A stretch of 64,000 nucleotides of DNA from Candidatus Gastranaerophilales bacterium (GCA_944324945.1 CALUYE010000007.1:2501-66500); one strand, 5' to 3'. Shown: positions 5,629 through 58,081, counted from the stretch's first letter. The notes: generated from the sequence alone by a model not told the origin. Numbers and translations are program-made.

Positions 5629-5643
5629 TTACTATTCCTTGAA

Positions 5644-5677: not shown

Positions 5678-5688
5678 GGGAAAATCAA

Positions 5689-6144: not shown

Positions 6145-6155
6145 GGAAAAAGACC

Positions 6156-29780: not shown

Positions 29781-30272
29781 ATGCAAAAAGAAGAAATTTT
29801 AAAAGAAATTAAAGATATTTTAATTAAAAATAATCTTTCCTTATCAAGTGCCGAAAGCTGCACGGGAGGACTTATAAGTTCATATTTAACGGATATTTCG
29901 GGAGCAAGTAATTTTATTTTTCAAAATTTTGTAACCTATTCAAACGAAGCAAAAACAAGATTTTTAGATGTAAAAGAAGATACTTTAAAAAACCATGGTG
30001 CAGTATCTTATAACACAGCCTACGAGATGGCTAAAGGTCTTTTAAATTATGCCGATTGCGCAATTGTAACAACGGGAATCTTAGGCCCTACTGGCGGAAG
30101 CAAAGATAAACCAATCGGGCTTGTTTATATCGGGCTTGGATATAAAGATAAAATTGAAGTTATAAAATACATCTCAAAAGAGGCAAAAACAAACGACAGA
30201 TATAAAATAAAAAAAGATATTGTTGAATATGCTCTTATTGAATTTTTGAAATTTATCAAAAAATACGTTTAA
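29781..30272 (+). CDS. pncC: CinA C-terminal domain / nicotinamide-nucleotide amidohydrolase
   Basis: LSSAESCTGGLISSYLTDISGAS and TGILGPTGG. Confidence 0.85.
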   Translation: MQKEEILKEIKDILIKNNLSLSSAESCTGGLISSYLTDISGASNFIFQNFVTYSNEAKTRFLDVKEDTLKNHGAVSYNTAYEMAKGLLNYADCAIVTTGILGPTGGSKDKPIGLVYIGLGYKDKIEVIKYISKEAKTNDRYKIKKDIVEYALIEFLKFIKKYV

Positions 30273-31067
30273 TTACTCTTTTTGAATGGATTTATTCAAC
30301 CATTCTTTAGCTTTGTAGCCTATAAGCATCTTCCCATCCGCACGAATACCAAAAGCAAAAGGGTCTTCACCTTTATCGATACCGTCTATATCCATACAAA
30401 ATAATTTGTAATTTATATCAAAACCGTTTAAACCCCGATTAGTCATATCCGTATCGGGTGATGCAAACCATCTTCCATCTGTTATTGGTTCACAGTCTTT
30501 GTCATTTTCTATATTATCAAGACAGAATCTGGTATCATTGTTTAAATGCCTTGCACTTTTAATGGAAATACCGAAAGTGGTAGCGGGTGCGCTTTGATAA
30601 AACACTATCCCGTCAGCCGTTACAATTTCCGCTCCCACTGCTTTGGCTCTTGATTTACAAATATCATCATAATTCCATAAATTTTCATCTTTTGCCCAGT
30701 CGCTTTTATCGGGATTTAACCATATACTTGCCTGCGCTTCAGAGCTTCCTTTAGATAGAGAACAATCAACACTTTTGGTGCTTATTGTATCTGCAAACGT
30801 TTCACAAAAATACGTAATATCCCCATCATGCTCCCCGTCAATCGTATTTCCGTTTGCTCTTGTACCCAAGTCCCCATTTTGATAATATCTATCTGATGAG
30901 ACAAGCTCACGAATTACCGTATTTAGAGTATTATATCCTTTTTTAAATTTCATAACCTGTTCATCGGGAGAACTCTGAAACGCTACAGGTAAAAGTATCA
31001 TGGTAAGAACGCCTATTATAACTAAAACGATTAATATCTCGGCTAATGTAAAAGCGTATTTTTTCAT
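30273..31067 (-). CDS. Prepilin-type N-terminal cleavage/methylation domain protein, paralog 2
   Basis: MKKYA|FTLAEILIVLVIIGVLTMILLP, with AAGGAG SD. Residues 6-68 and the last 50 aa are near-identical to paralogs 1 and 3; the centre is unrelated. Confidence 0.85.
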   Translation of the reverse strand: MKKYAFTLAEILIVLVIIGVLTMILLPVAFQSSPDEQVMKFKKGYNTLNTVIRELVSSDRYYQNGDLGTRANGNTIDGEHDGDITYFCETFADTISTKSVDCSLSKGSSEAQASIWLNPDKSDWAKDENLWNYDDICKSRAKAVGAEIVTADGIVFYQSAPATTFGISIKSARHLNNDTRFCLDNIENDKDCEPITDGRWFASPDTDMTNRGLNGFDINYKLFCMDIDGIDKGEDPFAFGIRADGKMLIGYKAKEWLNKSIQKE

Positions 31068-31230
31068 ATAAGCTCCTTAAAAATTTACAATCTAAATTTG
31101 TATTTTTTTATTATTTTACCTAATTTACTTCATATTTTACTATGCATTTTTAGAATAATCAAGAAAATACCAATTTTGCATTGTACTTTTAGTTTCGAGA
31201 ATATATTAAAATCAAAACGGGGTTTAAATT

Positions 31231-31548
31231 GTGAAAGATATTAAATTATTACTCGGAAAAAGAATTAAGGAACTGAGAAAAGCGCAAAAGCTTTCTCAGG
31301 AAGCACTTGCCGAAATTATTGATATTGATCAGAGAAATTTAAGCAATATAGAATGCGGAATATCTTTCCCCGCTAAAACCCTTGTTCAAATTGCCGATGC
31401 GCTGAAAGTTTCAATAAGTGATTTGTTTGATTTTGAACATTGTAATTACGATATTGAAAATATGAAAAAATTTATTAAAAACGAACTTGATAATTTGACT
31501 AATGATGACATAAAAACAATTTTCCGCCTTGTAAAATCAATGAGATAA
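31231..31548 (+). CDS. XRE-family HTH transcriptional regulator (XRE2)
   Basis: GTG start. LGKRIKELRKAQKLSQEALAEII...LSNIECG. Collinear with XRE1, including the C-terminal helical extension (DLFDFEH...). Confidence 0.85.
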   Translation: MKDIKLLLGKRIKELRKAQKLSQEALAEIIDIDQRNLSNIECGISFPAKTLVQIADALKVSISDLFDFEHCNYDIENMKKFIKNELDNLTNDDIKTIFRLVKSMR

Positions 31549-31632: not shown

Positions 31633-32820
31633 ATGATTAAAACGGTTTTAACAGATAAATCACAAAATTCAAAAGAATTATTGTCATCTTATTTAAAAAA
31701 TGCGGCAGGCATTGATTTTATTGCGTGTTTTGATAATCTTTGCGATATAGAAAATTTTGATAACATTGATTTAATTATTTTTAATATTTCTTTATCCGAT
31801 GAAGAAGAAACCTTAAAGCAGATTAATGAAATTAAACAAAAAAACGAAAATATTAAATTTATAGCGCTCAGCGATGATATGGATTCCATGCTTGCTAAAA
31901 ACACTTTAAATAATGGTGTATCCGATTTTTTGTTTAAACCTGTTATAGGAAGTATTTTAGAAGCTTCGATTAAAAAAATTAATTTTCCAAAAAAAATAAA
32001 AGAAGAACAAACAATTAAAAAAGCAAAGACAATAAGCGTTTTTTCTCTTAAAGGAGGAGTGGGTAAAACATCTGTTGCGGTTAATTTAGCTTATGAAATT
32101 GAAAAAAAGACAAATAAAAATGTTTGTCTTTTGGATTTTAATTCAAGTTCTTCTGATTGCGCTTTATTTTTGGGTTTAAATTCAAATAATAATATCGATG
32201 ATTTATTAAATGAATTTCAATATTCAAATAAAGAAAAAGCCCTTTCCTTGTTTGAAAAATTTCAAAATACTAATCTATATGTTTTAAGTACAGCATCCGA
32301 TAGCCTTGATTTTAAAATTACTCCCTTAAAAATAAATTTAATTATAAATTCTCTAAAAAATATTTTTGATTATATAATCATAGACACATACTGTGCTTAT
32401 GATGAAAACAATCTTGCCGTTTTAAATTCAAGCGATTTAATTTTATATATTTCAATTTTAAGCCAAAACGTTATAAAAAGTACTCAATCAATGATGGAAA
32501 TGTTTTCAAAAATAGGCTATAATCAGGAAAAAATTAAATTAATACTAAACAGATACGCGCAAGATTCTCAAATTTCAATTGAAGAATTCGAAAAAGAAGT
32601 CAATAAAGAAGTATTTATAACCCTGCCAAACAATTATTTAACAATGTCGGATGCGATAAACAGGCAAAATCCGCTCGATATTACTAATCCGCAGTCAAAT
32701 ATTGCAAAAGCTTTTAAAAAATTAGCTCTAAGTCTTGATGAAATTGATATAAACGCATTAAATTCAACAAAACAATACAACCATGGAATTTACAACATAA
32801 TCCGAAAGATGGGAGAATGA
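31633..32820 (+). CDS. TadZ/CpaE-like protein: atypical (pseudo-)receiver domain fused to a ParA/MinD-type ATPase
   Basis: The N-domain has receiver topology, but the phospho-acceptor position reads DLIIFNISL (Asn) while the ...FLFKP Lys is kept. Deviant Walker A VFSLKGGVGKTSVAVNLA and Walker B YIIIDT. ATG 31633 preferred over GTG 31618. Confidence 0.7.
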   Translation: MIKTVLTDKSQNSKELLSSYLKNAAGIDFIACFDNLCDIENFDNIDLIIFNISLSDEEETLKQINEIKQKNENIKFIALSDDMDSMLAKNTLNNGVSDFLFKPVIGSILEASIKKINFPKKIKEEQTIKKAKTISVFSLKGGVGKTSVAVNLAYEIEKKTNKNVCLLDFNSSSSDCALFLGLNSNNNIDDLLNEFQYSNKEKALSLFEKFQNTNLYVLSTASDSLDFKITPLKINLIINSLKNIFDYIIIDTYCAYDENNLAVLNSSDLILYISILSQNVIKSTQSMMEMFSKIGYNQEKIKLILNRYAQDSQISIEEFEKEVNKEVFITLPNNYLTMSDAINRQNPLDITNPQSNIAKAFKKLALSLDEIDINALNSTKQYNHGIYNIIRKMGE

Positions 32821-34031
32821 AATTGTCGCTTAAAGATAGATTAAATGAAGAAAATCCCAAAATAAAGGATATAAAACAAGAATCAAAGGAACCCGTGTAT
32901 TATAAAACAAGTGAAGAAGCTCTAAAAATTGATTCACTTGGAATTATAGATACGCTTTTGGCGGATGATGAAATAAATAATATCTTTGTTAACGGTGCAA
33001 AAAATATCCGCATTGAAAAAAAAGGCAAAATAAAACAAATAAATTCAAATTTTAAAAATGAAACAGAGCTTGAAAAAATCGTAAATAAATATCTTAAATA
33101 TAAAGGTTGCGATATTGAAAATGAAAAATATTTTAAATTAAATTACAAAAAAGGAGTTAATTTATCATTAACACTTCCTCCTTTGAGTGATAAAATTACC
33201 CTTAATTTTAAATGTTTTAACAATAAATTTGCAAATTTAAAAACCCTTGAAGAAAACAGGTGTTTATCTAAAGAAGCAGCACTTTTTTTAGAAGCAATAA
33301 GCAATCTTGATATAAATATTTTAATTTTGGGATTTAAAAAATCTCTAAAAACAACTCTTTTAGCTTCTCTTATAAAAGTTTTGAGCGAAAATACCCAAAC
33401 CTGCGTAATTGATTATTTAAATGAAATTGAAATAAATAAATCAAACTGCGCTTATTTTGATTTTTCAATTCTAAAAGATATAAAAAAACAAAAAGAAATA
33501 ACTAACTCTCTTATCTCCTCTTCTTTTGATAAATTATTCATAAACGGTTTGATTAATGACAACATAGAAGATATATTAAAAATTGCCTCCAATAATAAAG
33601 GTATTGTTATAAATTACGATATTGAAAATTTGAATAATTCAAACACTGAAATCATAAATAAAATCTATAAAGCTTTTGATATAATAATTACCTGCGATAA
33701 ATTTAAAGACAGGGCAGGTAAAATAACAAAAATTTTACAAACTTCTAAGCAAGATTCAGCCCCGCAGGAAATTTTTTATTTAAACGAAACGCAAAAACTT
33801 GATTCAACGGGACTTATTCCTGAAGTTTATAACAAAATGAAAGAAAATAATATTTCATTTAATCAAAACATATTTGATAAAGATTATAAACACACTTATT
33901 CGAACGATATTAACGAAATGTTAAACAGCGAAAAAACAATAAACCCCGAAATTTTAAAGAAATTCAAAAAAGATTTTTTGAATAACGAAACAAAAGAGCC
34001 ATCACAAAATAATGAAAACCGAGATTTATAA
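32817..34031 (+). CDS. CpaF/TadA-like secretion-ATPase homolog with degenerate catalytic motifs (probable pseudo-ATPase)
   Basis: Collinear by eye with CpaF: INNIFVNGAKNIRIEKKG, LTLPPLS. The Walker A position reads ILGFKKSLKTTLL (consensus GGTGSGKTT). The Asp-box position reads VIDYLNEI, Walker B FDKLFINGLI (no Glu), and His-box NNKGIVINYD (no His). ATG overlaps the upstream stop (ATGA) and has a GGGAGA SD. Confidence 0.6.
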   Translation: MKLSLKDRLNEENPKIKDIKQESKEPVYYKTSEEALKIDSLGIIDTLLADDEINNIFVNGAKNIRIEKKGKIKQINSNFKNETELEKIVNKYLKYKGCDIENEKYFKLNYKKGVNLSLTLPPLSDKITLNFKCFNNKFANLKTLEENRCLSKEAALFLEAISNLDINILILGFKKSLKTTLLASLIKVLSENTQTCVIDYLNEIEINKSNCAYFDFSILKDIKKQKEITNSLISSSFDKLFINGLINDNIEDILKIASNNKGIVINYDIENLNNSNTEIINKIYKAFDIIITCDKFKDRAGKITKILQTSKQDSAPQEIFYLNETQKLDSTGLIPEVYNKMKENNISFNQNIFDKDYKHTYSNDINEMLNSEKTINPEILKKFKKDFLNNETKEPSQNNENRDL

Positions 34032-35088
34032 AAAATTAATGAAAAAATGTATTGCCATATCCAAACGCTCCAAAGGGAATAATATGCCTAACCCTTATGT
34101 TGGAGCAATTGTTTATGATGAAGATAAAAATTTAATTATCTCTACAGGGTTTCATGAAAAATACGGAAAATCCCATGCCGAAGTAAATGCAATTAATAAT
34201 GCCAAAGGAAACACCAAAAATAAAACCTTAATCGTAAATTTAGAACCATGTTCTCATTTCGGTAAAACTCCCCCCTGTGCCGATTTAATTATTAAATCGG
34301 GTTTTAAAAGAGTGATTATCGGGATGATTGATGTTAACCCCGTTGTTCAAAATAACGGAATAAAAAAATTAAAAGAAGCAAAAATTGATGTTATAACAGG
34401 GGTTTTAGAAGCTGAGTGCAGGGAATTAAATAAAGTTTTTATTAAAAATATTTTATACAAAAAACCTTATATAATGCTAAAAAGCGCAACAACTCTCGAT
34501 GCAAAAATTGCAAACAATGAATTTAAATCAAAATGGATAACAAATGAAAAATCAAGAAACTACGTTCAAATTCTAAGAAGCGAATATCAGTCAATTATGT
34601 CGGCATCAGGAACAATTTTAAAAGACAACCCTAATTTAAACGTTAGAATTAAAAACAAAAAAAATCCGATAAGAATAATTTTTGATCCCAACAATAAAAT
34701 CCCTCTTGATTATAACGTTTTTAAAAATGATAAAACAAGAATAATTTTAATCAACAATTCAAATGTTAAACCCCCGTCCTATATTGAAAAAATAAACTTC
34801 AGCGGGGATTTTGGGGAATTATTTAAAAATTTATACAATAAAGGAATTTATTCAATTATGGTTGAAGCAGGTTCAAAATTTAATTCCCTGCTTTTAAAAA
34901 ATAAAGAAGTTGATGAAATCAATCAATTTATCTCGCCTAAAATATTCGGCTCGGGAATTGATTTTGTTTGTGATATCGATTGTCCCGATATAAATAAATG
35001 TATAAAACTTGAAAATATAAAATTAAAACGCTTTTGTGATGATATTTTAATTAAAGGGAGAGTAAAATATGAAAATTCTTGTAATTAA
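34012..35088 (+). CDS. ribD: Bifunctional riboflavin biosynthesis deaminase/reductase
   Basis: PNPYVGAIV, HAEVNAI, PCSHFGKTPPC, and a C-terminal RibD_C reductase domain. Confidence 0.9.
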   Translation: MKTEIYKKLMKKCIAISKRSKGNNMPNPYVGAIVYDEDKNLIISTGFHEKYGKSHAEVNAINNAKGNTKNKTLIVNLEPCSHFGKTPPCADLIIKSGFKRVIIGMIDVNPVVQNNGIKKLKEAKIDVITGVLEAECRELNKVFIKNILYKKPYIMLKSATTLDAKIANNEFKSKWITNEKSRNYVQILRSEYQSIMSASGTILKDNPNLNVRIKNKKNPIRIIFDPNNKIPLDYNVFKNDKTRIILINNSNVKPPSYIEKINFSGDFGELFKNLYNKGIYSIMVEAGSKFNSLLLKNKEVDEINQFISPKIFGSGIDFVCDIDCPDINKCIKLENIKLKRFCDDILIKGRVKYENSCN

Positions 35089-35515
35089 CGGCCCTAATCT
35101 TAACATGCTCGGAACAAGAGAGCCTGAAATCTACGGATGCGAAACGCTTGATGATATTAATAAAGAATTAAGCGATTTTTCAAAAACACTTTCTAAAGAT
35201 ATAGAAATTGATTTTTATCAATCAAACACGGAAGGCGAAATTATTGATAAAATTCAAAATTCAAAAAAATATAAAGGTTTAATAATAAACCCCGCAGCTT
35301 ATACCCACACAAGCATTGCAATAGCAGACGCCATTAAAGGAGCAGGCATAACGGCTGTTGAAGTGCATTTATCAAATATCCATGCAAGAGAAGAATACAG
35401 AAAAAAATCCTTCATATCTCCTGTTTCCATGGGGGTTGTGGCAGGTTTCGGCAAAAACAGCTACAAGCTTGCGCTTTTAGGATTGTATAAACATTTTTGC
35501 AAAAACAATGAATAA
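35069..35515 (+). CDS. aroQ: Type II 3-dehydroquinate dehydratase
   Basis: ILVINGPNLNMLGTREPEIYG, INPAAYTHTSIA, VEVHLSNIHARE. Confidence 0.95.
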   Translation: MKILVINGPNLNMLGTREPEIYGCETLDDINKELSDFSKTLSKDIEIDFYQSNTEGEIIDKIQNSKKYKGLIINPAAYTHTSIAIADAIKGAGITAVEVHLSNIHAREEYRKKSFISPVSMGVVAGFGKNSYKLALLGLYKHFCKNNE

Positions 35516-36380
35516 AGAGTTTGAATTTTTAAACATAATAAATAAAACCCTTGATGATAATTCTTATCTTGGAAATGACTGTGCTTATTTAGATGAATAT
35601 AAGCTTGCAATCTCATGCGATATTTTAATTGAAGATGTTCATTTTAAAAGACGCTATATGAGAGCGTCAGAAATTGCAAAAAAAGCAATTTTATCAAATA
35701 TATCAGACATTTTAGCCTCAGGTGCAAAATTAAAATATTTAACAATAGCGCTGAGCGGGCAATTGGATAATGATTTTATCAAAGAATTTTATAAAAGCGC
35801 AAACGAATTATCAAAAATATATGATTTTAAAATTGTATCTGGTGATTTAACAAAATCAGATAAAATTGTTGTTGCAATAAATGTTTTCGGGGATTATAAA
35901 AACAGAAACATCTCAAAAAGAAATAACGCAAAAGAAGGCTATATTACAGCAGTAATAGGGGAATTCGGCTCAAGCACGCAGGGGCTTTTTGATTTAGAAA
36001 AAGGATTGACGGATAATTATTTTATTAATTATCATAAAACCCCTAAATTATACCCTGAATTTTCATCGTTAATTTCAAAAAATGCAAAATATCCGTACGC
36101 CATGATGGATTCATCAGACGGACTTGTTGATTGTTTAAGTCAAATTTCTTCTAAAAGCGGGGTAAAAATAGAAGTAAAATACGACAAAATTCCCAAAAAA
36201 ACGCAAAACAAAGACTTTGTTTTATACGGAGGCGAAGATTATTCGCTTGTTGTGTGTTTAGATGAAAGGGATTTTATAAAATTCCCGTTCCTTATAAAAA
36301 TAGGCGAATGTAATAAAGGATACGGGGTCTATATTGATAATAAAAAAACGGATTATAAAGGCTATGAACACTTTGAATAA
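35508..36380 (+). CDS. thiL: Thiamine-monophosphate kinase
   Basis: GNDCAYL, DILIEDVHF, SNISDILASGA, MMDSSDGL (AIR-synthase-related fold). Confidence 0.85.
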   Translation: MNKEFEFLNIINKTLDDNSYLGNDCAYLDEYKLAISCDILIEDVHFKRRYMRASEIAKKAILSNISDILASGAKLKYLTIALSGQLDNDFIKEFYKSANELSKIYDFKIVSGDLTKSDKIVVAINVFGDYKNRNISKRNNAKEGYITAVIGEFGSSTQGLFDLEKGLTDNYFINYHKTPKLYPEFSSLISKNAKYPYAMMDSSDGLVDCLSQISSKSGVKIEVKYDKIPKKTQNKDFVLYGGEDYSLVVCLDERDFIKFPFLIKIGECNKGYGVYIDNKKTDYKGYEHFE

Positions 36381-37020
36381 AGTTAAAATCAGTGCAATTA
36401 TTACATCGGGCGGGAAATCGCTTCGTTTCGGTTCAAATAAATTACTTGCAAAACTCGGTGGTTTATCGGTTATTGAAACAACGATTCTAAAATTTATCAA
36501 TCATGTTGATGAAATAATTATCCCATCAAGCGATGAAATTCAGGAATTTATAAAAAAATCAAAAGTATATTCAACTAAAATTAAATTTGCACCCCCCGGT
36601 TCAACCCGTCAAAAAAGCGTATATAACGCTATTTTAAATTGTTCTAATCCCGAAATTGTTCTAATCCATGACGGCGCCCGTCCGTTTATAGATGAAGAAA
36701 TAATCAAAAAGACAATTGAGATGACATATCGCTATAGCGCAATTGTGGTAGGTAAGATGGCAGTTGATACAATTAAAGAAGTGGTGTTTAATTCTAATGG
36801 GGGAAAAATTGTTAAAACCTTAAATCGAAAAACAATTTTTCAAGCGCAAACTCCCCAGGCTTTTGATTATGAATTAATTAAAAAAATACACCAAAAATAT
36901 AAAGATAATCCTGATTTTACAGACGACAGCTCCATGGTGGAAAACGAGGGAATTGATGTTTATATTTTGGAAAACAACAAAAAAAATATAAAAATTACCA
37001 CTAAAGACGATTTATACTAA
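36364..37020 (+). CDS. ispD: 2-C-methyl-D-erythritol 4-phosphate cytidylyltransferase
   Basis: AIITSGGKSLRFG, VLIHDGARPF, AQTPQAF. ATG 36364 preferred; the track start at 36334 lies inside thiL. Confidence 0.9.
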   Translation: MNTLNKVKISAIITSGGKSLRFGSNKLLAKLGGLSVIETTILKFINHVDEIIIPSSDEIQEFIKKSKVYSTKIKFAPPGSTRQKSVYNAILNCSNPEIVLIHDGARPFIDEEIIKKTIEMTYRYSAIVVGKMAVDTIKEVVFNSNGGKIVKTLNRKTIFQAQTPQAFDYELIKKIHQKYKDNPDFTDDSSMVENEGIDVYILENNKKNIKITTKDDLY

Positions 37021-37116: not shown

Positions 37117-37425
37117 ATGCTGATAGATAAAAAATTTGCTTCTGATAAACAATGCTACTTTAACGAATTTAAAAATGTATCAAAAGAACTTCTTCCCTGG
37201 CTTGAAAATTTAGCGTGGGAATGTCGTTGTAAAATTGAGAAAAAAGAATGGAAAAGTAAATATAACAACTATGTAATTTATGATTACGAACCGTTTTGTT
37301 CGGACGGTTTTGAAATTAATCTGACTCTTTCGTCGCGCCAGAGTGAATATTTGAATTTTGTCAGATATTTATACGAAAATAAACTTCAAACAATAGGATA
37401 CCTTAAAGCTTGTCTGAATTTATGA
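37117..37425 (+). CDS. Hypothetical protein (102 aa)
   Basis: ORF only. Trp/Cys-containing small protein. Its end overlaps the radA stop by 6 nt (convergent). Confidence 0.4.
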   Translation: MLIDKKFASDKQCYFNEFKNVSKELLPWLENLAWECRCKIEKKEWKSKYNNYVIYDYEPFCSDGFEINLTLSSRQSEYLNFVRYLYENKLQTIGYLKACLNL

Positions 37426-38856: not shown

Positions 38857-39075
38857 TTAAATTTCAATAATATTACCAAGAGGAATTTCAAGCGAATTTA
38901 CAAGTTCAACAAGCTTTTTGACAGTCAGATTCTGTTCCCCTCTTTCAATTTTTCCGATGTAATTGGTATGAACGTTTGCAAGTTCCGCAAAGCGTTCCTG
39001 AGACAGGTGTTTTTTGGTGCGCTCAACTCTAAACTTAAGTCCTATGCGTTTTAAGACTGTCTTGTAATCTTCCAT
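38857..39075 (-). CDS. XRE-family HTH transcriptional regulator (XRE3, 72 aa)
   Basis: LKFRVERTKKHLSQERFAELANVHTNYIGKIERGEQN. Divergent from pilin paralog 3. No SD upstream of its ATG (possibly a short leader or leaderless). Confidence 0.85.
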   Translation of the reverse strand: MEDYKTVLKRIGLKFRVERTKKHLSQERFAELANVHTNYIGKIERGEQNLTVKKLVELVNSLEIPLGNIIEI

Positions 39076-39087: not shown

Positions 39088-39126
39088 CACTATTGACATA
39101 GTGGTTTCTATACTATTATAATAGTG
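39088..39126. promoter_or_regulatory. Twin 16-bp palindromic operators overlapping the -35 and -10 of the pilin-3 promoter
   Basis: CACTATtgacATAGTG (39088-39103) and TACTATtataATAGTG (39111-39126), with centres 23 bp apart. Confidence 0.65.
39094..39122 (+). promoter_or_regulatory. Consensus sigma70 promoter for pilin paralog 3
   Basis: TTGACA (39094-39099), a 17-nt spacer, then TATAAT (39117-39122). It lies 44 nt upstream of ATG 39166. Confidence 0.75.
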
Positions 39127-39165
39127 GATAAAGATAATATTATTTTTATTGAGATAGGAATTTAT

Positions 39166-39924
39166 ATGAGAAAGTTTGGTTTTACTTTAGCGGAAATTTT
39201 AATCGTTTTAGTTATAATAGGCGTTTTAACCATGATACTTTTACCGATTGCATTTCAGAGTTCTCCTGATGAACAGGTTATGAAATTTAAAAAAGGATAT
39301 AATACATTAGGTACTGTCATTCGTGAACTTGTAACATCAGATAAATATTATCAAAACGGAGACTTAGGGCTTAAAAAAGACGGTACGCTTATTTTAAATA
39401 ATGATAATACAAGAAGCTATTTTTGCGAAACTTTTTCGGATGTTGTAAGCACAAAAAATGTAAATTGTATGGAAGATAATTTAGTAAGAGGAACGGTTTT
39501 ATTAAACAGACAAGAAGTGGGCACAGGGTACACCCCTAAAACTCCAAGCGAAGAAGATATTAAAAATTCAAAGGAACTTTTTGATACAAACTGCAAAAAT
39601 GCCCAAAAAGACATGCCTGAAGAAATCGTATTAAATGACGATACGATTTTTTATAACGCGGGTACTGCTGCTTTTGGCTCCCATGAAACCTATAGTGAAG
39701 ACGGGACGCCGATTCACCTTCGTTTTTTCTCGCCGCCCGATCAGTTTCCCGCTAATTATTGTGATGAAAACGGTTTTGATATAGCCTATAAGACTTTTTG
39801 CATGGATATAGACGGCTTTAATAAAGGCGAAGACCCTTTCGGTTTTGGAATAAGAGCAGATGGAAAAATCTTAACGGGTGCGCGTGCGGATGAATGGATA
39901 AATAAATCTATTCAAAAAGATTAA
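39166..39924 (+). CDS. Prepilin-type N-terminal cleavage/methylation domain protein, paralog 3
   Basis: MRKFG|FTLAEILIVLVIIGVLTMILLP. ATG 39166 preferred because the track's upstream start lies in the promoter. Conserved N- and C-blocks as in paralogs 1 and 2. Confidence 0.85.
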   Translation: MRKFGFTLAEILIVLVIIGVLTMILLPIAFQSSPDEQVMKFKKGYNTLGTVIRELVTSDKYYQNGDLGLKKDGTLILNNDNTRSYFCETFSDVVSTKNVNCMEDNLVRGTVLLNRQEVGTGYTPKTPSEEDIKNSKELFDTNCKNAQKDMPEEIVLNDDTIFYNAGTAAFGSHETYSEDGTPIHLRFFSPPDQFPANYCDENGFDIAYKTFCMDIDGFNKGEDPFGFGIRADGKILTGARADEWINKSIQKD

Positions 39925-40583
39925 AGCAATTTATCAACGTATTCAATTATTTTTTGATGAATTTCCTGTGGCGATTTTGTGCCGTCAAGTTCGATAAAAT
40001 TATATTCTTTTATTAATTTTTTATATTCCAAAAGGCATCTTTTTTGATATATCTCAAAGCTGTTATAAATATCCGTTGACAGACCTATGTCTCTGCCTGC
40101 TTCAAAATAATCAAGACCGCCGTTTTTTGCAATTAATCTTTTAATTAAAATATCAACGGGAACATTTAAATAAAAAACTAAATCAGGCTCGGGGGCAAAT
40201 TCATAAAGATTTTTTACCCATTCAATGTTATGTCCTCTGACGGAATCTCTAACGTATGCCGTATAAATGTATCTATCCATTAAAACGACAAATCCAGCTT
40301 TAAGCGCGGGTATAATTTCGTTTTCGAGTCTGTCTGTGTAGTCTGCGGCATATAAAAGAGAATATGTTGTTGTGTTTAACATATTTTTTTCTTTTGCTTC
40401 ATTGATTACGCCCGAAATTAATCTTGAAGTTTTCCACTGGGAGACTGTGCAGCCGTAGCATTTATTTTTAATATATTGCGATAATAAATTAACCTGGCTC
40501 GATCTTCCCGAACCATCCGTTCCTTCAATTACTATCAATAACCCGTCGTAACCGTGGGGTGTTTTATTATTCTTTGTTTTCAT
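39921..40583 (-). CDS. Thymidylate-kinase-like protein B (P-loop Lys replaced by Arg)
   Basis: LLIVIEGTDGSGRSSQ (consensus GxxGxGK[ST]) and a DRY motif (LMDRYIYTAY). About 45% identical by eye to the upstream paralog. Confidence 0.7.
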   Translation of the reverse strand: MKTKNNKTPHGYDGLLIVIEGTDGSGRSSQVNLLSQYIKNKCYGCTVSQWKTSRLISGVINEAKEKNMLNTTTYSLLYAADYTDRLENEIIPALKAGFVVLMDRYIYTAYVRDSVRGHNIEWVKNLYEFAPEPDLVFYLNVPVDILIKRLIAKNGGLDYFEAGRDIGLSTDIYNSFEIYQKRCLLEYKKLIKEYNFIELDGTKSPQEIHQKIIEYVDKLL

Positions 40584-41253
40584 TTAAAACTTTTCTTTCT
40601 TTTAAAAGCGCACTTACTTTTTCTCTTAAAAATTTTTGTTTATTGCGGATACTGTCAAGTGCATCGATTTTTATTAAGCCGAATTCATCAATCATTTGTT
40701 TATATTGTTCTACAATTCTGTTTTGAAAAATGACATAACTTTTATAAGGGTTATTTGATAACTTCATATCCATGCCCGCTTCATAAAAACTTGGTTGTCT
40801 GTTTGAGCAGATTCGCTCTAAGCTGTCTTTGGGGCTTACGTCAAAATAAAAAGTTATATCGGGTTTAATTGCAAAAGAATACATATTCCTAACCCATTTC
40901 GGATCAACATTACGCGCAACATCACGTGCAAATGCGGTATAAACATATCTATCCGCCAAAACAACAAAGCCTGCTTTAAGAGCGGGTTTTATTGTGCGTT
41001 CCAATCTGTCTGCAAAATCAACGGCATGCAAAAGAGAAAAAGTTCTTCCCGATAAAAGATTTTTCTTTTTTGCTTTTTTTGTCGTATTTGAAATTAAATC
41101 AGACGAATTCCACTGGGTTAAAATTGTATCAACATTTATTGAATTAAGCCATGAGTGCAACAATTCAATCTGGGTTGATTTACCTGAACCGTCAATTCCT
41201 TCAACACAAATTAATACACCTTTATAGTCATGGTTTTTTGAAAATCTTATCAT
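40567..41253 (-). CDS. Thymidylate-kinase-like protein A
   Basis: LICVEGIDGSGKSTQ P-loop and LADRYVYTAF. Overlaps the downstream paralog by 17 nt. Confidence 0.75.
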   Translation of the reverse strand: MIRFSKNHDYKGVLICVEGIDGSGKSTQIELLHSWLNSINVDTILTQWNSSDLISNTTKKAKKKNLLSGRTFSLLHAVDFADRLERTIKPALKAGFVVLADRYVYTAFARDVARNVDPKWVRNMYSFAIKPDITFYFDVSPKDSLERICSNRQPSFYEAGMDMKLSNNPYKSYVIFQNRIVEQYKQMIDEFGLIKIDALDSIRNKQKFLREKVSALLKERKVLNENKE

Positions 41254-45309: not shown

Positions 45310-46761
45310 CTAAATTTTTCCAAGGATATTCAATTTATAATCAAGAGGAATTTCTTCATAACATATAACGGGTATATCCATAAATAATTGAGATACAAGA
45401 ATAAATACAATTTGCCTGTATTGCTGGCATACGACAAGCACTGCGTTTTGATTGATTATGTTTTGCCTTGTTTCTTTTAAGATTTTTTTAAACTTTGAAA
45501 ATTTTGAAATGTCTATTTTGACATTTGCTTCTTCTTTATTTGTTTGTTTTTCAAGTAAATCAAGAGTATCATCATCTATTTCGTAAGCAAAAATTTCTTT
45601 ATCTTTATTTGAAACACTCTTTGCAATTTGCCTTGATAAAGCCATTCTTAATTTATCTAAAAGATCGGATTTTACGGGGTCATCCGAAAAATCGTTTAAT
45701 TTTTCAAAAATATAGACAATATCTCTAACACTCACTTTTTCTCTGATTAGTTGCACAAGGATATATTTAAGTTCTGAAACGCTTAAATAATCCCCGATGA
45801 TTGAATCCGTTAAAAATGAATTTTTTTCGTTTACAAATTCGATATATCTGTTTAAATCAGTATAATCAAAAATTTCATCAACATGAACAATGCTGTAATA
45901 GTTTAAATAATTTGCAATATATTGCGAAGCATCAATTCCTTCAAGCCAAAAATCCCTGCAATCGTTTTTATTAATCCAGATTAATTTTCTTTTTGTTAAG
46001 GGGTCTTTTGTTTTGTGAGAATTTTTCGGCGCTTTTGAAATGTTTAATTCGTCTTCAAAAAACGCAAGATGCTCAGGATACGCCTTTGCATTTATTACAC
46101 TTACCCCGTGGATATTAATTGAAAACTCAAATTCATCAAAAGAAGTGTTTTCAATAAATTGAACTTTCGGGATAATGTAGCCCAGTTCTTTTGTTAAATC
46201 CTGTCTTACTTTAAGAGTTTGAGCAACCAGGTTATTTTCGCCCGTCGGATCACAAAGACAATAGTTTTCGCTTGATAAACTTATTGATAACTTTTCTTCT
46301 CCTAAAAATTTAGACATTTTATAAGGAGATAAAACCTCGTTTAAGTCTTTTTTTAAAGAATTTAATTCGTCAATATCTTTTTTAATTTCTTCGTTTAAGA
46401 TGTCTCTTTCTTGTTCTTTAGAACTTTCAAGAAATTTTTTTATTTTTTCTATTTTGTCTTTTTTATCTTTTATTTTTTTCTGTAAATTTATACAAATCTC
46501 ATAAGGCTCTTCTTTTGTATAAAGCATGCGCTCAACGGAATTTCTGAAATTAATTATATCTTCGTTTGAATCATCCTGCATATTTTCCACTTCTTTTGTA
46601 AAAATGCAGTTATATACTATTTTTGAATTTTGCTCCGCTTCATAAATGGAATATAATTCCCAGCCTGTGCTTGACATGGCGTTAAGCGTATTTTCAAGAA
46701 GAACGGTGTCGTCTGTGGGTATTGATTTTATTGAAAATTCCTGTCTGAATTCTTTATTCAT
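45310..46761 (-). CDS. Soluble FlhA-cytoplasmic-domain (FHIPEP C-terminal) paralog with novel N-terminal domain and coiled coil
   Basis: Residues ~165-483 are collinear with FlhA_C: VRQDLTKELGYIIPKVQFIENTS..EFSINIHGV, LIWINKND, IANYLNYYSIVHVDEIF, LVQLIREKVSVRDIVYIFEKLND, LRMALSRQI. No TM segments. N-terminus contains GWELYSIYE (DUF4177-like). Residues ~90-150 are K/E-rich coiled coil. Confidence 0.7.
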   Translation of the reverse strand: MNKEFRQEFSIKSIPTDDTVLLENTLNAMSSTGWELYSIYEAEQNSKIVYNCIFTKEVENMQDDSNEDIINFRNSVERMLYTKEEPYEICINLQKKIKDKKDKIEKIKKFLESSKEQERDILNEEIKKDIDELNSLKKDLNEVLSPYKMSKFLGEEKLSISLSSENYCLCDPTGENNLVAQTLKVRQDLTKELGYIIPKVQFIENTSFDEFEFSINIHGVSVINAKAYPEHLAFFEDELNISKAPKNSHKTKDPLTKRKLIWINKNDCRDFWLEGIDASQYIANYLNYYSIVHVDEIFDYTDLNRYIEFVNEKNSFLTDSIIGDYLSVSELKYILVQLIREKVSVRDIVYIFEKLNDFSDDPVKSDLLDKLRMALSRQIAKSVSNKDKEIFAYEIDDDTLDLLEKQTNKEEANVKIDISKFSKFKKILKETRQNIINQNAVLVVCQQYRQIVFILVSQLFMDIPVICYEEIPLDYKLNILGKI

Positions 46762-51562: not shown

Positions 51563-52150
51563 TTATTCAGGTTCCTCTTCTATTCCGAAAATTTGATTTT
51601 CGATTATATTAATTAACCTGTCCTGCCAGCCTGCGTCTTTTTTAATAAAGATATCGGCACCTCCGTTTAGACATTTTATTTTATCTTCGGTTTTATTGGA
51701 TGCCGTAATTACTATAATTTTTGTGTTTAAGTTGTTTTTTGTAATAATTTTTTTCGTTTCATGAAGCAAAGTATAACCTTCTTGTTCGGTTGAAACAAAT
51801 AAGTCCATGATTATATAGTCATATTTATTGTTTGCAAAAGAATTCATTGCTCCAAAAACATCTTTTGAAACATGAACATTGTATCCTATATTTTTTAATA
51901 AAATTTTTAACTGATAAGTTACGATTCCTATATCGTCAACAACTAAAATATTATTTGTTTCTCTATCCATCGCCTGAAAGCCTTCTTCTTCCGAAATTGT
52001 TTCAGGATTTACCAGAGATTTTAATTTAAAAATGCATTCAAAAAAAGCTTCTTCACTGTATTTTTCGGGAATTTTTAAACCCGCAATATTAAAAAGTTCG
52101 TTTGCAATTTCTTTATTTATTTCAACTGTTTGTTTTATTTCTTCTTCCAT
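51563..52150 (-). CDS. CheY-like single-domain response regulator with ~65-aa N-terminal extension
   Basis: ILVVDDIG, acceptor YIIMDLFV, ITAS and IFIKKD: all receiver signature residues are present. Start overlaps the fliN stop. Confidence 0.8.
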   Translation of the reverse strand: MEEEIKQTVEINKEIANELFNIAGLKIPEKYSEEAFFECIFKLKSLVNPETISEEEGFQAMDRETNNILVVDDIGIVTYQLKILLKNIGYNVHVSKDVFGAMNSFANNKYDYIIMDLFVSTEQEGYTLLHETKKIITKNNLNTKIIVITASNKTEDKIKCLNGGADIFIKKDAGWQDRLINIIENQIFGIEEEPE

Positions 52151-52151
52151 A

Positions 52152-52484
52152 CTAGCCTAACATTTCATTATAATTTTCATTATTTTGCACATCAGTTATT
52201 CTTAACCCGAAGTTATCTTCAACTATAACAACTTCGCCTCTTGCGACCTCTTGCCCGTTTGCCAAAAGCTTAACCGGTTCCGTTGTTTTATTTTCAAGTT
52301 CAATAACGGAACCTTTTGTTAAATCTAAAATTTCAGTTAAAGACATTTTTGTTTCACCCAAGATTGCAGACAACTCAAGTTCAACATCTAAAATAAGATT
52401 GTAGGTTTTAGATGTTTGGCTTTTTTTTGGTCTTTCGCAATTTTCAAGACTTGATATATCAAGATTTTTGGGCTCTTGCGGCAA
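52152..52484 (-). CDS. fliN: Flagellar motor switch protein FliN
   Basis: SpoA domain: LDVELELSAILGETKMSLTEILDLTKGSVIELE...LLANGQEVARGEVVIVEDNFGLRI. Confidence 0.9.
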   Translation of the reverse strand: MPQEPKNLDISSLENCERPKKSQTSKTYNLILDVELELSAILGETKMSLTEILDLTKGSVIELENKTTEPVKLLANGQEVARGEVVIVEDNFGLRITDVQNNENYNEMLG

Positions 52485-52487
52485 AAT

Positions 52488-53441
52488 TTACTCCTTTATT
52501 TTGTATTGATCAACAATTTTTATACATACTTTATTGTTAATTACCCCCGGAATTACAAAAAATTTCTTCTTTTTGTTAACACAGGCAATTAATTCTTCAT
52601 TTAACTTTTGATCTAATTTTATAACATCGTTTATTTTTAAATCAAGCACATCATTTATTTGAAGCTTTGTCTTACCGAGTATGACCTGCATTTCAAGATA
52701 TGCACCTTTAATTTTTTCTAATGTTTCATTCCTTCCGACTTCGTTTGATGCAACGCTTGCATGCTGATATATATATTGAGGCGTTAATTTTGGTAAAACC
52801 GTTTCTAAAACAGGATACGGGAAACAAAGATTCATTAAGCCGAAATTCTTTTGTCCCAATCTTACTTCAAAAGAAATAAGCGAGACGATTTCGCCGTTTG
52901 TTGTAATGGGGACGGAATGATATCCGTTAGCCAAGGCGACAAATTCCGATTTAACGGGCAATATGGCGCTCCATGATTCTTCAAGTATTTTTATTATTTT
53001 TTCGGTGAATTTTGTTGTTAAAAGTTCTTCAATTTGTGTTAATTCTTTCCCATGTTCATTTACAATGCCTGCACCTCCAAGCATCCTGTCTAATACAACA
53101 GCCAAAACATCAGGACTCATGCCCATAGAAACTTCACCCGTTAAGGGGTTTAATTTAAATACCATGTTTTGAATATTGCTTGGCATTGAACAGATATATT
53201 CTTCATAAGTCAATTGATCAACGGAAATTACATCAATTCTTACTTCCATTCTTAAATATGCCGTTAAAATCTGCGCAAGATGGCGGACAAAATCACGGTG
53301 AATATCCTGTAGGGCTTTTAAATGTTCTTTTGAGAATTTATCGGGGCGCCTGAAATTATAAAGCTTACAGCCTCTTACAAGCTCGTTGGTGATAATATTT
53401 TCCTCGATATTTTCTTCGCTAAAATTTTGATTTTCCATCAT
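52488..53441 (-). CDS. fliM: Flagellar motor switch protein FliM
   Basis: LYNFRRPDKFSKEHLKALQDIHRDF..., LDRMLGG, and a C-terminal SpoA-like domain. Confidence 0.9.
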   Translation of the reverse strand: MMENQNFSEENIEENIITNELVRGCKLYNFRRPDKFSKEHLKALQDIHRDFVRHLAQILTAYLRMEVRIDVISVDQLTYEEYICSMPSNIQNMVFKLNPLTGEVSMGMSPDVLAVVLDRMLGGAGIVNEHGKELTQIEELLTTKFTEKIIKILEESWSAILPVKSEFVALANGYHSVPITTNGEIVSLISFEVRLGQKNFGLMNLCFPYPVLETVLPKLTPQYIYQHASVASNEVGRNETLEKIKGAYLEMQVILGKTKLQINDVLDLKINDVIKLDQKLNEELIACVNKKKKFFVIPGVINNKVCIKIVDQYKIKE

Positions 53442-55053: not shown

Positions 55054-56415
55054 TTATAAATTTTCGCTAAAATCCACGCCGCCTGTTGATTTATATAACC
55101 CGATTGATGAAATTATATAATTGACTTTATCGTTTATTAATTTTTCAAGTGCGATATTTTGGGCTATTTCATACGTTATATAATCCGCCTTACTTGAAAG
55201 GCCGTATTTTGCATTGTTTGATTTTAATTTTAATTTTTCGCTCTGTATATCATAAACATCTGATGATAAATCATAGTTTCTTTCTTCGTTTTTAAAAATT
55301 GCAAGCGAATCATTTACTTCTTTTAGGGAAGCCAGGATAGTTTTTTCATATTCTTCTTTTGCTCTTGATAGTTCAATTTGTTTTAATTTCATAAAATTAA
55401 ATCTTCTTGCGCCGTCAAATATATTCCACCTCGGTGCAACAAAAACTTCCGCAATTCCCGTATGGGAACCGAAAATTCCTTTTAGGTTGTTATAACCGTT
55501 AAAGCCGAATGTGCCCGTTATTGTAAAGGATGGAAGGAGTTCTCTTTTGGCAATGCGAGCATCATAATTTGCCCTTATGATGTTTTCGCTTTTTAAAACT
55601 ACATCAGGGCGGTTTAAGATTATTTGCGATTCAAGAGTTTCAGGTGCGCTAAAAGGCATTGTGATTGAATCAAAATCACTTCTTTTTACTTCTTTAAATA
55701 ACTTATCTCCCAAAAGATAGCTTAATTGGTTTTCAAGAGTTTCTTTTTTTGTTTCGTAGTTGTTGATTTTTGCTTTAATTTTAACAACATTTTCTTTAAT
55801 TGCCAAAACATCGTCTTTTGTTGCAAGTCCTGTTTTTTCTTTATTTTCAATTAATCTTAAAAGTTCTTCGTTAAGAGAGAGTAATTTTTTTTCAATACTA
55901 AGAGTTTTATCTATCTTGATCAAATTAAAATAATCTGCCCCGATAGCGCTTGATAGAAGAATATAAGTAGATTTTTCATCCTGTTTTATCATTTTAAGGC
56001 TTTGAGTTCTGCTTTTTGTTTTAAGCCTGTTTTTACCCCAGATATCTATTTCATAGCTTACATATAAAGGCAATAAAAACCTTGATTGATTATAGCTGTT
56101 TATTACAAGTGAGCCGAAATGTTCATCCGATGATGAAAAAGTTTGTCCGATTAAAGGTTCAAAATCAATTTGCGGTAATTCTTCGCCAAGTGCAAGTTTG
56201 ACAATTTTTTCGCTTTCTTTTACTTTATAAGCCGCTATTTTTAAATCAAGATTGTTTTCAAATGCGGTTTTTAAATTATCAATTAAAATTTCATCCTGAA
56301 ATTTTGACCAAAAATTAAGATTCAGGTACTCCGTTTTATCCTCCTGCTCGTTTTTGGCAAAGCAAAAGGATGCAAATTGCAATATTAAAAATAATATGTA
56401 TAATATTTTTTTCAT
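55054..56415 (-). CDS. TolC/NodT-like outer-membrane efflux protein (copy 2)
   Basis: Paralog of 4276-5628, including SYEIDIWGKNRLKTKS and LPSFTITG. Confidence 0.85.
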   Translation of the reverse strand: MKKILYILFLILQFASFCFAKNEQEDKTEYLNLNFWSKFQDEILIDNLKTAFENNLDLKIAAYKVKESEKIVKLALGEELPQIDFEPLIGQTFSSSDEHFGSLVINSYNQSRFLLPLYVSYEIDIWGKNRLKTKSRTQSLKMIKQDEKSTYILLSSAIGADYFNLIKIDKTLSIEKKLLSLNEELLRLIENKEKTGLATKDDVLAIKENVVKIKAKINNYETKKETLENQLSYLLGDKLFKEVKRSDFDSITMPFSAPETLESQIILNRPDVVLKSENIIRANYDARIAKRELLPSFTITGTFGFNGYNNLKGIFGSHTGIAEVFVAPRWNIFDGARRFNFMKLKQIELSRAKEEYEKTILASLKEVNDSLAIFKNEERNYDLSSDVYDIQSEKLKLKSNNAKYGLSSKADYITYEIAQNIALEKLINDKVNYIISSIGLYKSTGGVDFSENL

Positions 56416-56448
56416 TGTTGTTAAAAATAAGTATGACTAAAATTTTTT

Positions 56449-56470
56449 TTATGTTATTATGATAACATAA
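56449..56470. promoter_or_regulatory. Perfect 9-4-9 inverted repeat (candidate MarR operator, copy 2)
   Basis: TTATGTTAT-tatg-ATAACATAA in the tolC2/marR2 divergent spacer. Unrelated to the copy-1 palindrome. Confidence 0.55.
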
Positions 56471-56495
56471 TAGCATAAAAAATAAAAAATCAAGT

Positions 56496-56951
56496 ATGTT
56501 GAATCAACTGAATCGAAATTCAATATCAAACGAAATTGTTACATGCGCTACTTTAATTAAAGTATTAACACTAAGAGCTTTTAAGGAGCATAATTTTGAA
56601 ATTACTCCCGAACAGTTTATAATTTTAGATGTTATTATAAATAACGAAGAACTCTACCAAAGAAAACTGGGAAAAATCTTAGGAAAAGATAGAGCAAATA
56701 TAACAAGACTATTAGACATTCTTTTTAAAAAAGGGTTAATCGAAAAAGAAAGTTCATCCAACGGAAGAAAAATAAACAAAATTAAAATTACAAAAAAAGG
56801 AGAAGATTTACGAAATAAAATTTTCCCTGTAATATCTAAAGTAAGGCAAAGCTATTTAAATGGTATAGAATATAAAGATATAGAAAATTGTTTAAAAATT
56901 TTAAATAAAATAAAAGAAAATATTTCAGAAAATACAAAACTTCAAACCTAA
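56496..56951 (+). CDS. MarR-family transcriptional regulator (copy 2)
   Basis: ITPEQFIILDVIINNEELYQRKLGKILGKDRANITRLLDILFKKGLIEK. Confidence 0.85.
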   Translation: MLNQLNRNSISNEIVTCATLIKVLTLRAFKEHNFEITPEQFIILDVIINNEELYQRKLGKILGKDRANITRLLDILFKKGLIEKESSSNGRKINKIKITKKGEDLRNKIFPVISKVRQSYLNGIEYKDIENCLKILNKIKENISENTKLQT

Positions 56952-56966
56952 AACCGGGAGAATAAA

Positions 56967-58040: not shown

Positions 58041-58063
58041 AATGAGGTTTTTGCCTCATTTTT
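58041..58063 (+). terminator. Intra-operon hairpin with T-run between emrA2-like and emrB2-like genes
   Basis: AATGAGG-tttttg-CCTCATT, then ttt. Copy 1 has no spacer at the equivalent junction. Confidence 0.4.
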
Positions 58064-58081
58064 AATTATTAGTCGAAGAAA

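Follow-up and report, generated by a model that had tools for sequence, protein, structure and literature searches.

ATPases of the PilT/VirB11 family that serve secretion systems and pili are generally regarded as motors, and Tad machines are localised by TadZ/CpaE. The motor of the Tad (type IVc) pili is the bifunctional ATPase CpaF/TadA (PMC11300603, PMC12019362). A TadZA fusion is described from Bdellovibrio, and prior work summarised in the same study indicates that TadZ is needed for the polar positioning of TadA (10.64898/2026.07.08.737194). In this work, we analysed a stretch of 64,000 nucleotides from Candidatus Gastranaerophilales bacterium (GCA_944324945.1 CALUYE010000007.1:2501-66500; hereafter the window, with positions counted from its first letter), in which a TadZ/CpaE-type gene is directly followed by a gene derived from cpaF/tadA (Table 1). 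The Gastranaerophilales are non-photosynthetic Melainabacteria of the gut. We conclude, with a probability of roughly 65%, that the pair is best explained as an orphan TadZ–CpaF module that is under selection and has been repurposed to a non-motor role. The identity of the two proteins, their ancestry and the finding that they are selected and not decaying are, taken jointly, held with high confidence. The initial annotation of the locus had described a Tad-like remnant made of two translationally coupled open reading frames (ORFs); both were recovered with their ATGA overlap, and all the motif strings it had quoted are present (DLIIFNISL, KGGVGKT, GFKKSLKTT, NNKGIVINYD and FINGLI, the last within FDKLFINGLI). 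The start of the TadZ-like gene was placed at ATG 31633 and not at GTG 31618, because its homologues begin with MIKTV.

Taken alone, the CpaF-like protein scores 16.6 bits against PF00437, below the cut-off of 24.9 bits, and it matches the TadA family TIGR03819 at 8e-14; some members of its clade pass the PF00437 threshold (e.g., P0016 at 34 bits). A profile built from 22 sequences of its family aligned with the Caulobacter CpaF (8rkd, 9e24) at an E value of 3e-63 over both the N-terminal and the ATPase domains, and the AlphaFold model, with a predicted local distance difference test (pLDDT) score of 80, returned CpaF structures (8rjf, 8rkd, 9e24) as the top Foldseek matches (E 9e-22). The protein consists of an N-terminal peptide with a disordered stretch, the N-terminal domain, the RecA-like ATPase domain and a lineage-specific C-terminal extension, and it shows 25% identity (E 2e-27) to a canonical Gastranaerophilaceae CpaF (P0341), than which it is about 80 N-terminal residues shorter. 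The three-helix bundle is absent: the profile match starts at CpaF residue 138, and only about 40 residues precede the N-terminal domain. In the C-terminal extension, NPEILKKFKKDF is a predicted basic amphipathic helix after a disordered linker, which the model places at residues 377–387 with low pLDDT. The initial annotation had called this protein CpaF-like with degenerate motifs from reading by eye, and its calls were upheld and extended by the alignment, in which neither Walker B nor the His box was restored.

For the comparison of single residues, positions 138–483 of CpaF were rebuilt from the profile alignment, the numbering was checked against published residues, and 69 clade members were tabulated; the residue roles are those given in the CpaF structure papers (PMC11300603, PMC12019362). 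R217 and R223 are the arginine fingers acting in cis and R347 the one acting in trans (PMC12019362), and the E357A mutant of CpaF is non-functional in vivo (PMC11300603). In the window protein, the changes are G286 to Leu, G356 to Asn, E357 to Gly, H374 to Asn and H382 to Asp, and further R217 and R223 to Asn, R347 to Ser, R359 to Ile and R431 to Gly. Across the clade, Leu stands at G286 in 63 of 69 members and Asn at G356 in 68, the E357 position carries Asp in 46 and otherwise Thr, Ser, Asn or Gly, and the cis fingers are Asn in 52/69 (R217) and 59/69 (R223). The positions of the trans finger R347, of D309 in the Asp box and of the gamma-phosphate-sensing residues R359, H374 and H382 are variable. 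K287, T288 and E312, which bind the nucleotide and Mg2+, are kept in all 69, and the adenine contact R431 is Arg in 55 of them. The structure papers count the three-helix bundle in the minimum architecture of CpaF and identify loop 8 (R205, R206 and D208) and the pore loop (E331 and G334) as the contacts with the platform (PMC11300603, PMC12019362). In the clade, R205 and R206 of loop 8 are lost, E331 is deleted in 67/69 and G334 of the pore loop is lost, the loop that contacts the platform having a deletion of 4–5 residues. Judged by alignment, the protein lacks every residue that the CpaF structures tie to hydrolysis and gamma-phosphate sensing (R217, R223, R347, E357, R359 and H382), and it is most probably not an active motor ATPase.

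The TadZ-like protein matches the Pfam families AAA_31, CbiA and ParA above threshold, and its Response_reg match of 28.7 bits lies slightly below the cut-off of 30.2 bits. The AlphaFold model (pLDDT 84.6) consists of a (beta-alpha)5 receiver (residues 1–115), a ParA/MinD domain (approximately 132–370), a disordered linker and a terminal helix. The best Foldseek match of the ATPase domain is 3ea0, a ParA-family ATPase of Chlorobium that is also the best match by sequence, and among the 50 matches listed only 3fkq, the TadZ of E. rectale, combines a receiver with a ParA domain, aligning across 401 alignment columns. Its TadZ counterpart in a complete Tad locus of the Gastranaerophilaceae (L043) is 32% identical (E 2e-54). 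The TadZ-like architecture proposed in the initial annotation was therefore confirmed. The Asn at the phospho-acceptor position, to which that annotation had also drawn attention, is present, but the comparison does not support it as a defining TadZ-like feature: of 120 homologues, 112 have Asp at this position and one has Glu, Asn being confined to the window's own 99% cluster and two further ones, and Asp also stands in the TadZ of both complete Tad loci (L043 and L044). The Ser of beta-4 (S80) and the Lys-Pro of beta-5 (K102-P103) are conserved across the homologues. As Asp, Ser and Lys-Pro are present in most of them, the receiver of the family looks phosphorylatable, and the Asn of the window appears to be a species-level change.

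In the ATPase domain, K145 is invariant, K140 is conserved in at least 90% of the family, and the Asp of Walker B is conserved. As far as sequence can indicate, the protein retains all that a ParA/MinD-type ATP-dependent dimer needs, namely the signature Lys, the P-loop Lys and the Walker B Asp. The switch I region was compared by profile alignment with the Aquifex MinD (4v03), its D40A mutant (4v02) and the Chlorobium protein 3ea0, which has the same D-x-S, and the position of the second, catalytic Asp of MinD was found to be Asn in the window and Ser in most relatives. Since this is the residue mutated in 4v02, the TadZ-like protein would bind ATP and hydrolyse it slowly or not at all. The C-terminal tail is modelled as a helix at residues 386–394 with low pLDDT and a hydrophobic moment of 0.62, and it is a candidate amphipathic helix for binding the membrane or a partner. 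The hydrophobic moments of the terminal peptides are compatible with amphipathic helices and not decisive; a MinD control scored below the candidates. The possibility that the TadZ-like protein is the cell's MinD or FlhG was rejected: the similarity is weak (24% identity to a Melainabacterial MinD from locus L045, E 1e-07; 70 bits against TIGR01968, far under its cut-off of 212.9 bits), the catalytic Asp is lacking, and a related lineage has a separate minCDE.

Complete Tad loci were found in related Gastranaerophilaceae metagenome-assembled genomes (L043 and L044), with the order RcpC, secretin, TadZ (receiver and ParA), CpaF, T2SSF, T2SSF, a small ORF and a TPR protein; in L044, comEC lies near the Tad locus, which, together with the cinA and radA neighbours of the pair, led us to consider a putative link to competence. 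A search seeded with less degenerate relatives returned thousands of CpaF proteins, the best-scoring of about 490 amino acids. The few best scorers with a named source are called CpaF, and two of them come from Gastranaerophilales or Gastranaerophilaceae. Almost all of the best scorers are canonical (GGTG[AS]GKTT, PDRI[IV][IV]GE and T[LV]H[AS]N[ST]), and the three that were checked all share an MSL[KR]DRLN N-terminus. The CpaF-like protein of the window has in common with the canonical Gastranaerophilaceae CpaF the N-terminus MSLKDRLN and a C-terminal extension with ...KHTY, for which the canonical equivalent reads ...EYFNKERKHTY...NIFSQRLQK. The terminal peptides of both window proteins appear to descend from those of the lineage's canonical Tad proteins. 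The Tad ancestry suspected in the initial annotation is supported by the complete loci, by the similarity to TadZ and by these shared CpaF termini.

Orphan pairs of TadZ and a CpaF-like protein at an intermediate stage of degeneration were identified in three loci (L039, L041 and L045), with no T2SSF or secretin nearby. The L041 pair lies in the same cinA...ribD-aroQ-thiL-ispD synteny as that of the window, and its CpaF-like protein keeps the Walker A Gly, the Walker B Gly-Glu, R217 and R223 and has lost R347, R359 and both histidines. The L039 pair stands in another gene context, and in L045 (11479-15032) the pair adjoins ribF and is convergent to a minC-minD-minE operon, an adjacency that may be coincidental. 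For three further intermediates (P0201, P0213 and P0216), the contigs were too short to give a gene context. In a neighbour-joining tree (52 taxa, 366 columns, 100 bootstraps), the catalytically dead clade was supported at 100%, its grouping with most of the intermediates at 70% and the further grouping with the canonical Melainabacterial CpaF at 89%. On these comparisons, the pair appears to be an old, vertically inherited orphan copy of the lineage's own tadZ-tadA (cpaE-cpaF) module. In the most parsimonious history, a tadZ-tadA copy would have been separated from the rest of the pilus locus and come to lie between cinA and ribD; the gamma-phosphate sensors would have gone first, and the gut clade would later have lost the glycine of the P-loop, both cis arginine fingers, the three-helix bundle and the loop that contacts the platform.

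The distribution of the pair was studied in 51 close homologues, in the loci of 31 GTDB species and in about 50 representative clusters (50% identity). Every match with a taxon name belongs to the Gastranaerophilales or Melainabacteria, among the 31 loci also to Vampirovibrio, and a handful are labelled only 'uncultured bacterium'. This survey, which had been suggested together with the initial annotation, revealed conserved synteny: the order cinA–pair–ribD occurs in about 30 of the 31 Gastranaerophilales species loci (one has no cinA match), and where the contigs continue, most loci add aroQ-thiL-ispD, often with orf102 and radA, and a few have no ispD match. The overlapping ribD-aroQ-thiL-ispD genes had been noted correctly downstream of the pair, each overlapping its predecessor (starts at 34012, 35069, 35508 and 36334), and the observation that no TadB/C platform, secretin or prepilin peptidase follows was also reproduced, in that neither T2SSF nor secretin nor prepilin peptidase was matched by Pfam among the scanned ORFs of at least 110 amino acids in the window. 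What did not hold is the description of the pair as fused to a housekeeping operon in the sense of a recent event, as the cinA–pair–ribD arrangement is old and conserved; ribD, aroQ, thiL and ispD are conserved operon partners that stand outside the function of the module.

The rate of evolution was compared between species pairs of 71–84% identity using multiple alignments, which gave ratios of non-synonymous to synonymous substitution rates (dN/dS) of 0.08–0.17 for the CpaF-like gene, 0.09–0.22 for the TadZ-like gene and 0.03–0.23 for the neighbours, so that the pair is indistinguishable in this respect from cinA, ribD, aroQ and thiL. Against the 96.7%-identical strain L046, the values were 0.13 (CpaF-like) and 0.08 (TadZ-like), with no stop codons. 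The initial annotation had allowed for a decaying Tad locus, i.e., non-functional genes heading for loss, and the missing catalytic motifs, the local absence of the rest of the machine, the position of the window's subclade as the most degenerate and with the shortest protein, and the loss of the receiver Asp in the window species would all agree with it. This is already contradicted and extremely improbable: the CpaF-like ORF is intact in 31 of 31 species (401–494 amino acids), the gene order is conserved, purifying selection on the pair equals that on the essential biosynthetic neighbours both across species and within the window's own lineage, the family-specific motifs are invariant, and the AlphaFold models are confident. 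The pair is therefore not decaying.

A selected pair could still work in a Tad pilus encoded elsewhere in the genome, with the CpaF-like protein as a non-catalytic subunit, partner or brake of a catalytic CpaF. The complete Tad loci of related Gastranaerophilaceae fit this explanation, as do the split tad loci and extra tadA paralogues of Bdellovibrio (10.64898/2026.07.08.737194) and the fact that the inspected part of the genome amounts to 64 kb. It is nevertheless unlikely, because the features that engage TadB/TadC (R205, R206, E331 and G334 of the pore loop, and the three-helix bundle) are gone, and neither T2SSF nor secretin nor Flp was seen near the pair in the gene or Pfam tables, which covered the window together with 11 loci (in the 31 genome loci, only matches to the neighbour genes of the window were looked for). 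In addition, only genes of the type IVa pilus were reported when a Gastranaerophilus genome was surveyed with TXSScan (PMC5877343), and the dead clade takes the place of the less degenerate orphan copy at the same syntenic site (L041) and does not stand beside it.

The initial annotation had also offered a regulatory or positioning pseudo-ATPase pair co-opted for the adjacent pilin cassette; the pseudo-ATPase part of that proposal stays the best reading, and the link to the pilins is not supported. Between cinA and the pair, pilin and helix-turn-helix (HTH) genes were seen in the window and its close strain L046 but in none of the 31 other species loci, in which cinA directly abuts the TadZ-like gene (one has no cinA match) and no pilin is adjacent; in one of the 31, a pilin-like match lies about 6 kb upstream. 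An 8-kb block that contains the pair is bracketed, in inverted orientation, by a pilin and an HTH gene at either end, and the two pilin paralogues share 51% amino acid identity and a 213-nt inverted repeat at 85%. In L046, the flanks of the block are swapped, i.e., the block is inverted with breakpoints within the pilin genes, and one of the pilins of this strain is chimeric with a novel 396-nt centre and the other is a 3' fragment. This rearrangement may represent pilin variation by recombination. Given the inversion in L046, the pilin adjacency reflects recombination of pilin genes around the block and not a functional link to the pair. The 5' region of the third pilin gene (1198–1466) is 74% identical to the 5' region of the L046 pilin, from which it follows that the genome carries a pilin family with a conserved 5' end. 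Co-option of the pair for type IV pilin or type IVa pilus biology could draw on the three pilin-like genes of the window, on the presence of PilA, PilB, PilC, PilT and PilD in Gastranaerophilales (PMC5877343) and on the consideration that such a machine might in principle offer a docking site to a scaffold resembling a secretion ATPase, but with a lineage-specific adjacency and a bracket that rearranges between strains independently of the pair itself, we regard it as very unlikely.

The connection between the two proteins is suggested by several observations. Their genes are coupled by the ATGA overlap, as noted above. Among 15 gene pairs, theirs has the pairwise distances that correlate best (raw 0.78, partial 0.58), which suggests co-evolution and is not decisive, as pairwise distances are not independent. 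At least 13 natural fusions of a ParA domain (KGGVGKS/T) with CpaF, i.e., TadZ–CpaF proteins of about 700 amino acids, are present in the representative library, in addition to the TadZA fusion of Bdellovibrio (10.64898/2026.07.08.737194). The searches also showed polypeptides with two or three tandem, apparently canonical CpaF modules (P0172, P0173, P0183 and others; 1605, 1156 and 949 amino acids).

For the repurposed module, a specific positioning or scaffold mechanism can be put forward only tentatively. The CpaF-like protein could not act as a motor and would be an inert oligomeric scaffold or regulator, possibly still binding nucleotide. The TadZ-like protein would recruit or position it, as TadZ does for TadA in Tad systems, perhaps at the membrane via the conserved C-terminal amphipathic tails, with MSLKDRLN and ILKKFKK of the CpaF-like protein and YNHGIFNLLRRMGE of the TadZ-like protein as candidate docking or membrane-binding peptides. 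Phosphorylation of the receiver would switch this complex in most species, and the window species, with Asn fixed at the acceptor, would be locked in the unphosphorylated state. Polar organelles (the flagellum, the type IVa pilus) or another envelope process are candidate targets. It is conceivable, though we put it forward with reserve, that the pair is a new, pilus-independent ParA/MinD-type positioning system in which a phospho-regulated TadZ descendant organises a dead CpaF-derived ring. The ring would then perhaps be an exapted landmark or hub at the cytoplasmic membrane, with a housekeeping role in cell organisation throughout the gut Gastranaerophilales.

Several points weigh against the preferred reading of a selected module with a non-motor role, or narrow it. 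The pair evolves approximately twice as fast as its neighbours, which fits a less constrained or shifting role. Long-branch attraction may affect the neighbour-joining tree. The physical interaction of the two proteins is putative. Binding of nucleotide by the GxxxxLKTT loop is uncertain, and in the window's subclade, where R431 is also missing and the E357 position is no longer acidic, nucleotide binding may be absent altogether. Finally, 64 kb of the genome were covered, and a canonical Tad locus or a catalytic CpaF could lie elsewhere in it.

The positions of the pair, its motifs and the neighbouring features are collected in Table 1.

Table 1. Features of the TadZ–CpaF-like pair and its surroundings, in window coordinates.
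Feature	Position	Strand	Basis or remark
TadZ/CpaE-type protein, 395 amino acids	31633..32820	+	Pfam, AlphaFold, Foldseek, identity to TadZ
Receiver beta-3 strand DLIIFNISL, residues 46-54	31768..31794	+	Phospho-acceptor position (residue 51) is Asn
Deviant Walker A SLKGGVGKTS (KGGVGKT, residues 140-146)	32044..32073	+	Signature lysine K140; K145
Switch I region CLLDFNSS	32125..32148	+	D168 invariant; MinD D40 position is Asn
C-terminal tail YNHGIYNIIRKMGE	32776..32817	+	Family-conserved; predicted short helix after disordered linker
ATGA start/stop overlap of the two genes	32817..32820	+	Read from sequence
CpaF/TadA-derived probable pseudo-ATPase, 404 amino acids	32817..34031	+	Family profile, Foldseek, key-residue tables
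N-terminal-domain segment YKKGVNLSLTLPPLS	33144..33188	+	Cis fingers R217 and R223 both Asn
Degenerate Walker A GFKKSLKTT, residues 172-180	33330..33356	+	G286 is Leu; Lys and Thr kept
Asp-box remnant VIDYLNEIE	33405..33431	+	E308 to Asp in 69/69; E312 kept in 69/69
Walker B remnant FDKLFINGLI, residues 237-246	33525..33554	+	G356-E357 are Asn-Gly
His-box remnant NNKGIVINYD, residues 259-268	33591..33620	+	H374 to Asn, H382 to Asp
C-terminal extension, motifs NIFDKDYKHTY and NPEILKKFKKDF	33867..33977	+	Clade-conserved
ribD, aroQ, thiL, ispD, overlapping downstream genes	34012..37020	+	Pfam; synteny in most of the 31 species loci
cinA, conserved upstream neighbour	29781..30272	+	Pfam CinA
Lineage-specific insertion between cinA and the pair (pilin-like gene and HTH regulator)	30273..31548		N_methyl and HTH_3 matches
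Type IV pilin-like gene	30273-31067	-	N_methyl
HTH regulator	31231-31548	+	HTH_3
Paralogous HTH	38857-39075	-	Other end of the 8-kb block
Paralogous pilin	39124-39924	+	Other end of the 8-kb block
Third pilin-like gene	703-1485	-	N-terminal methylation motif

The window has a G + C content of about 31% and is chromosomal DNA with the gene content of a gut Melainabacterium: Pfam matches revealed the dcw cluster, flagellar genes, type IV pilin-like genes and housekeeping genes. The taxon names found among the nearest database relatives of the two proteins are Candidatus Gastranaerophilales, Melainabacteria and 'Cyanobacteria bacterium SIG27'. Three ORFs already identified by other means were left out of the ORF scan, and four of the scanned ORFs had no family match. 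As the DNA is rich in AT, scans of 29.7–37.5 kb for promoters and terminators gave no useful signal (52 promoter-like sites, with 44 expected).

Other genes of the window were recorded in the course of the analysis. The 102-amino-acid ORF at 37117-37425 (+), which has no Pfam match, shows 73–87% identity over 23 loci and its place is always between ispD and radA; the small protein is highly conserved and uncharacterised. Two thymidylate-kinase-like genes (220 and 228 amino acids) overlap in tandem at 39921-41253 (-). A 483-amino-acid ORF at 45310-46761 (-) matches only positions 321–655 of the 657 of the FHIPEP (FlhA) profile and would represent the cytoplasmic half only, lacking the membrane domain; gene calls in strain L046 gave the same 483-amino-acid product. 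FliM, FliN and a 195-amino-acid receiver protein with an N-terminal extension of about 67 residues stand in a row at 51563-53441 (-), and a flagellin follows further along at 61451-62314 (-); with FliM, FliN and flagellin in the window, the organism therefore has flagellar genes besides pilins. Two paralogous cassettes (4276-8675 and 55054-59617) each consist of an outer-membrane efflux protein (-) followed by MarR, an HlyD-type adaptor and an MFS transporter (+).

A literature search found no published description of an orphan, catalytically dead CpaF clade or of its pairing with TadZ, and searches on UCP018868, on pseudo-ATPases with type IV pili, on Tad/Flp in Melainabacteria and on degenerate CpaF/CpaE returned nothing relevant. 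Many family members carry precomputed matches to PF27713 ('UCP018868'), which suggests that part of the wider family is already catalogued as uncharacterised. NCBI names some members of the clade 'Flp pilus assembly complex ATPase component TadA'; as most of the catalytic and architectural features that define CpaF fail in it, the window protein should not be filed as a TadA ATPase, and Tad pili in Melainabacteria should not be inferred from these genes. The dead clade would be a clean natural example of a motor turned pseudo-enzyme and kept by selection in an order of gut bacteria, and, if the positioning system is real, the first non-motor pseudo-enzyme in the PilT/VirB11 secretion-ATPase superfamily. 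The graded series from the canonical CpaF in Tad loci through orphan pairs with Walker A and B to the dead clade makes the order of loss readable, and the pair offers a tractable way to study which features of TadA are recognised by TadZ-type ATPases. As the hosts are uncultured, the practical impact is limited.

Compared with CpaF/TadA of the Tad (type IVc) pili (8rjf, 8rkd, 9e24), the CpaF-like protein has homologous N-terminal and RecA-like ATPase domains, and its gene directly follows and is coupled to a tadZ-like gene. It differs in the Gly-to-Leu change of Walker A and in the loss of the arginine fingers, the Walker B Gly-Glu, R359 and the His-box histidines, as well as in the missing three-helix bundle, the pore-loop deletion and the sub-threshold PF00437 score, and it is encoded in a biosynthetic operon with no TadB/TadC, secretin, Flp or TadV nearby. 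The TadZ-like protein resembles TadZ/CpaE (3fkq; 3ea0) in its receiver-like and ParA/MinD domains, in the deviant Walker A KGGxGKT, in the gene order of tadZ then tadA, in the Ser/Asn that takes the place of the catalytic second Asp of MinD, as in 3ea0, and in its 32% identity to the TadZ of complete Tad loci of the same family. Unlike TadZ/CpaE, it stands upstream of a tadA-like gene but outside a tad locus, with no other tad gene, it has a conserved C-terminal amphipathic tail, and in most species its receiver looks phosphorylatable and not 'atypical', the window having Asn.

The TadZA of Bdellovibrio bacteriovorus and the TadZ–CpaF fusions of about 700 amino acids present TadZ and TadA as one functional unit that is separable from the other tad genes and tied to polarity factors; however, the fusions keep canonical motifs (GGTGSGKTT, T-x-HANS) and serve real pili, whereas here there are two separate proteins, of which the TadA part is probably dead. 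With MinD and FlhG/FleN, the TadZ-like protein shares the ATPase fold, the deviant Walker A, a candidate C-terminal amphipathic helix after a flexible linker and a putative partner protein, but it is only distantly similar to the Melainabacterial MinD, has no catalytic Asp and is accompanied by neither MinC/MinE nor an FlhF partner, the minCDE operon of L045 being separate.

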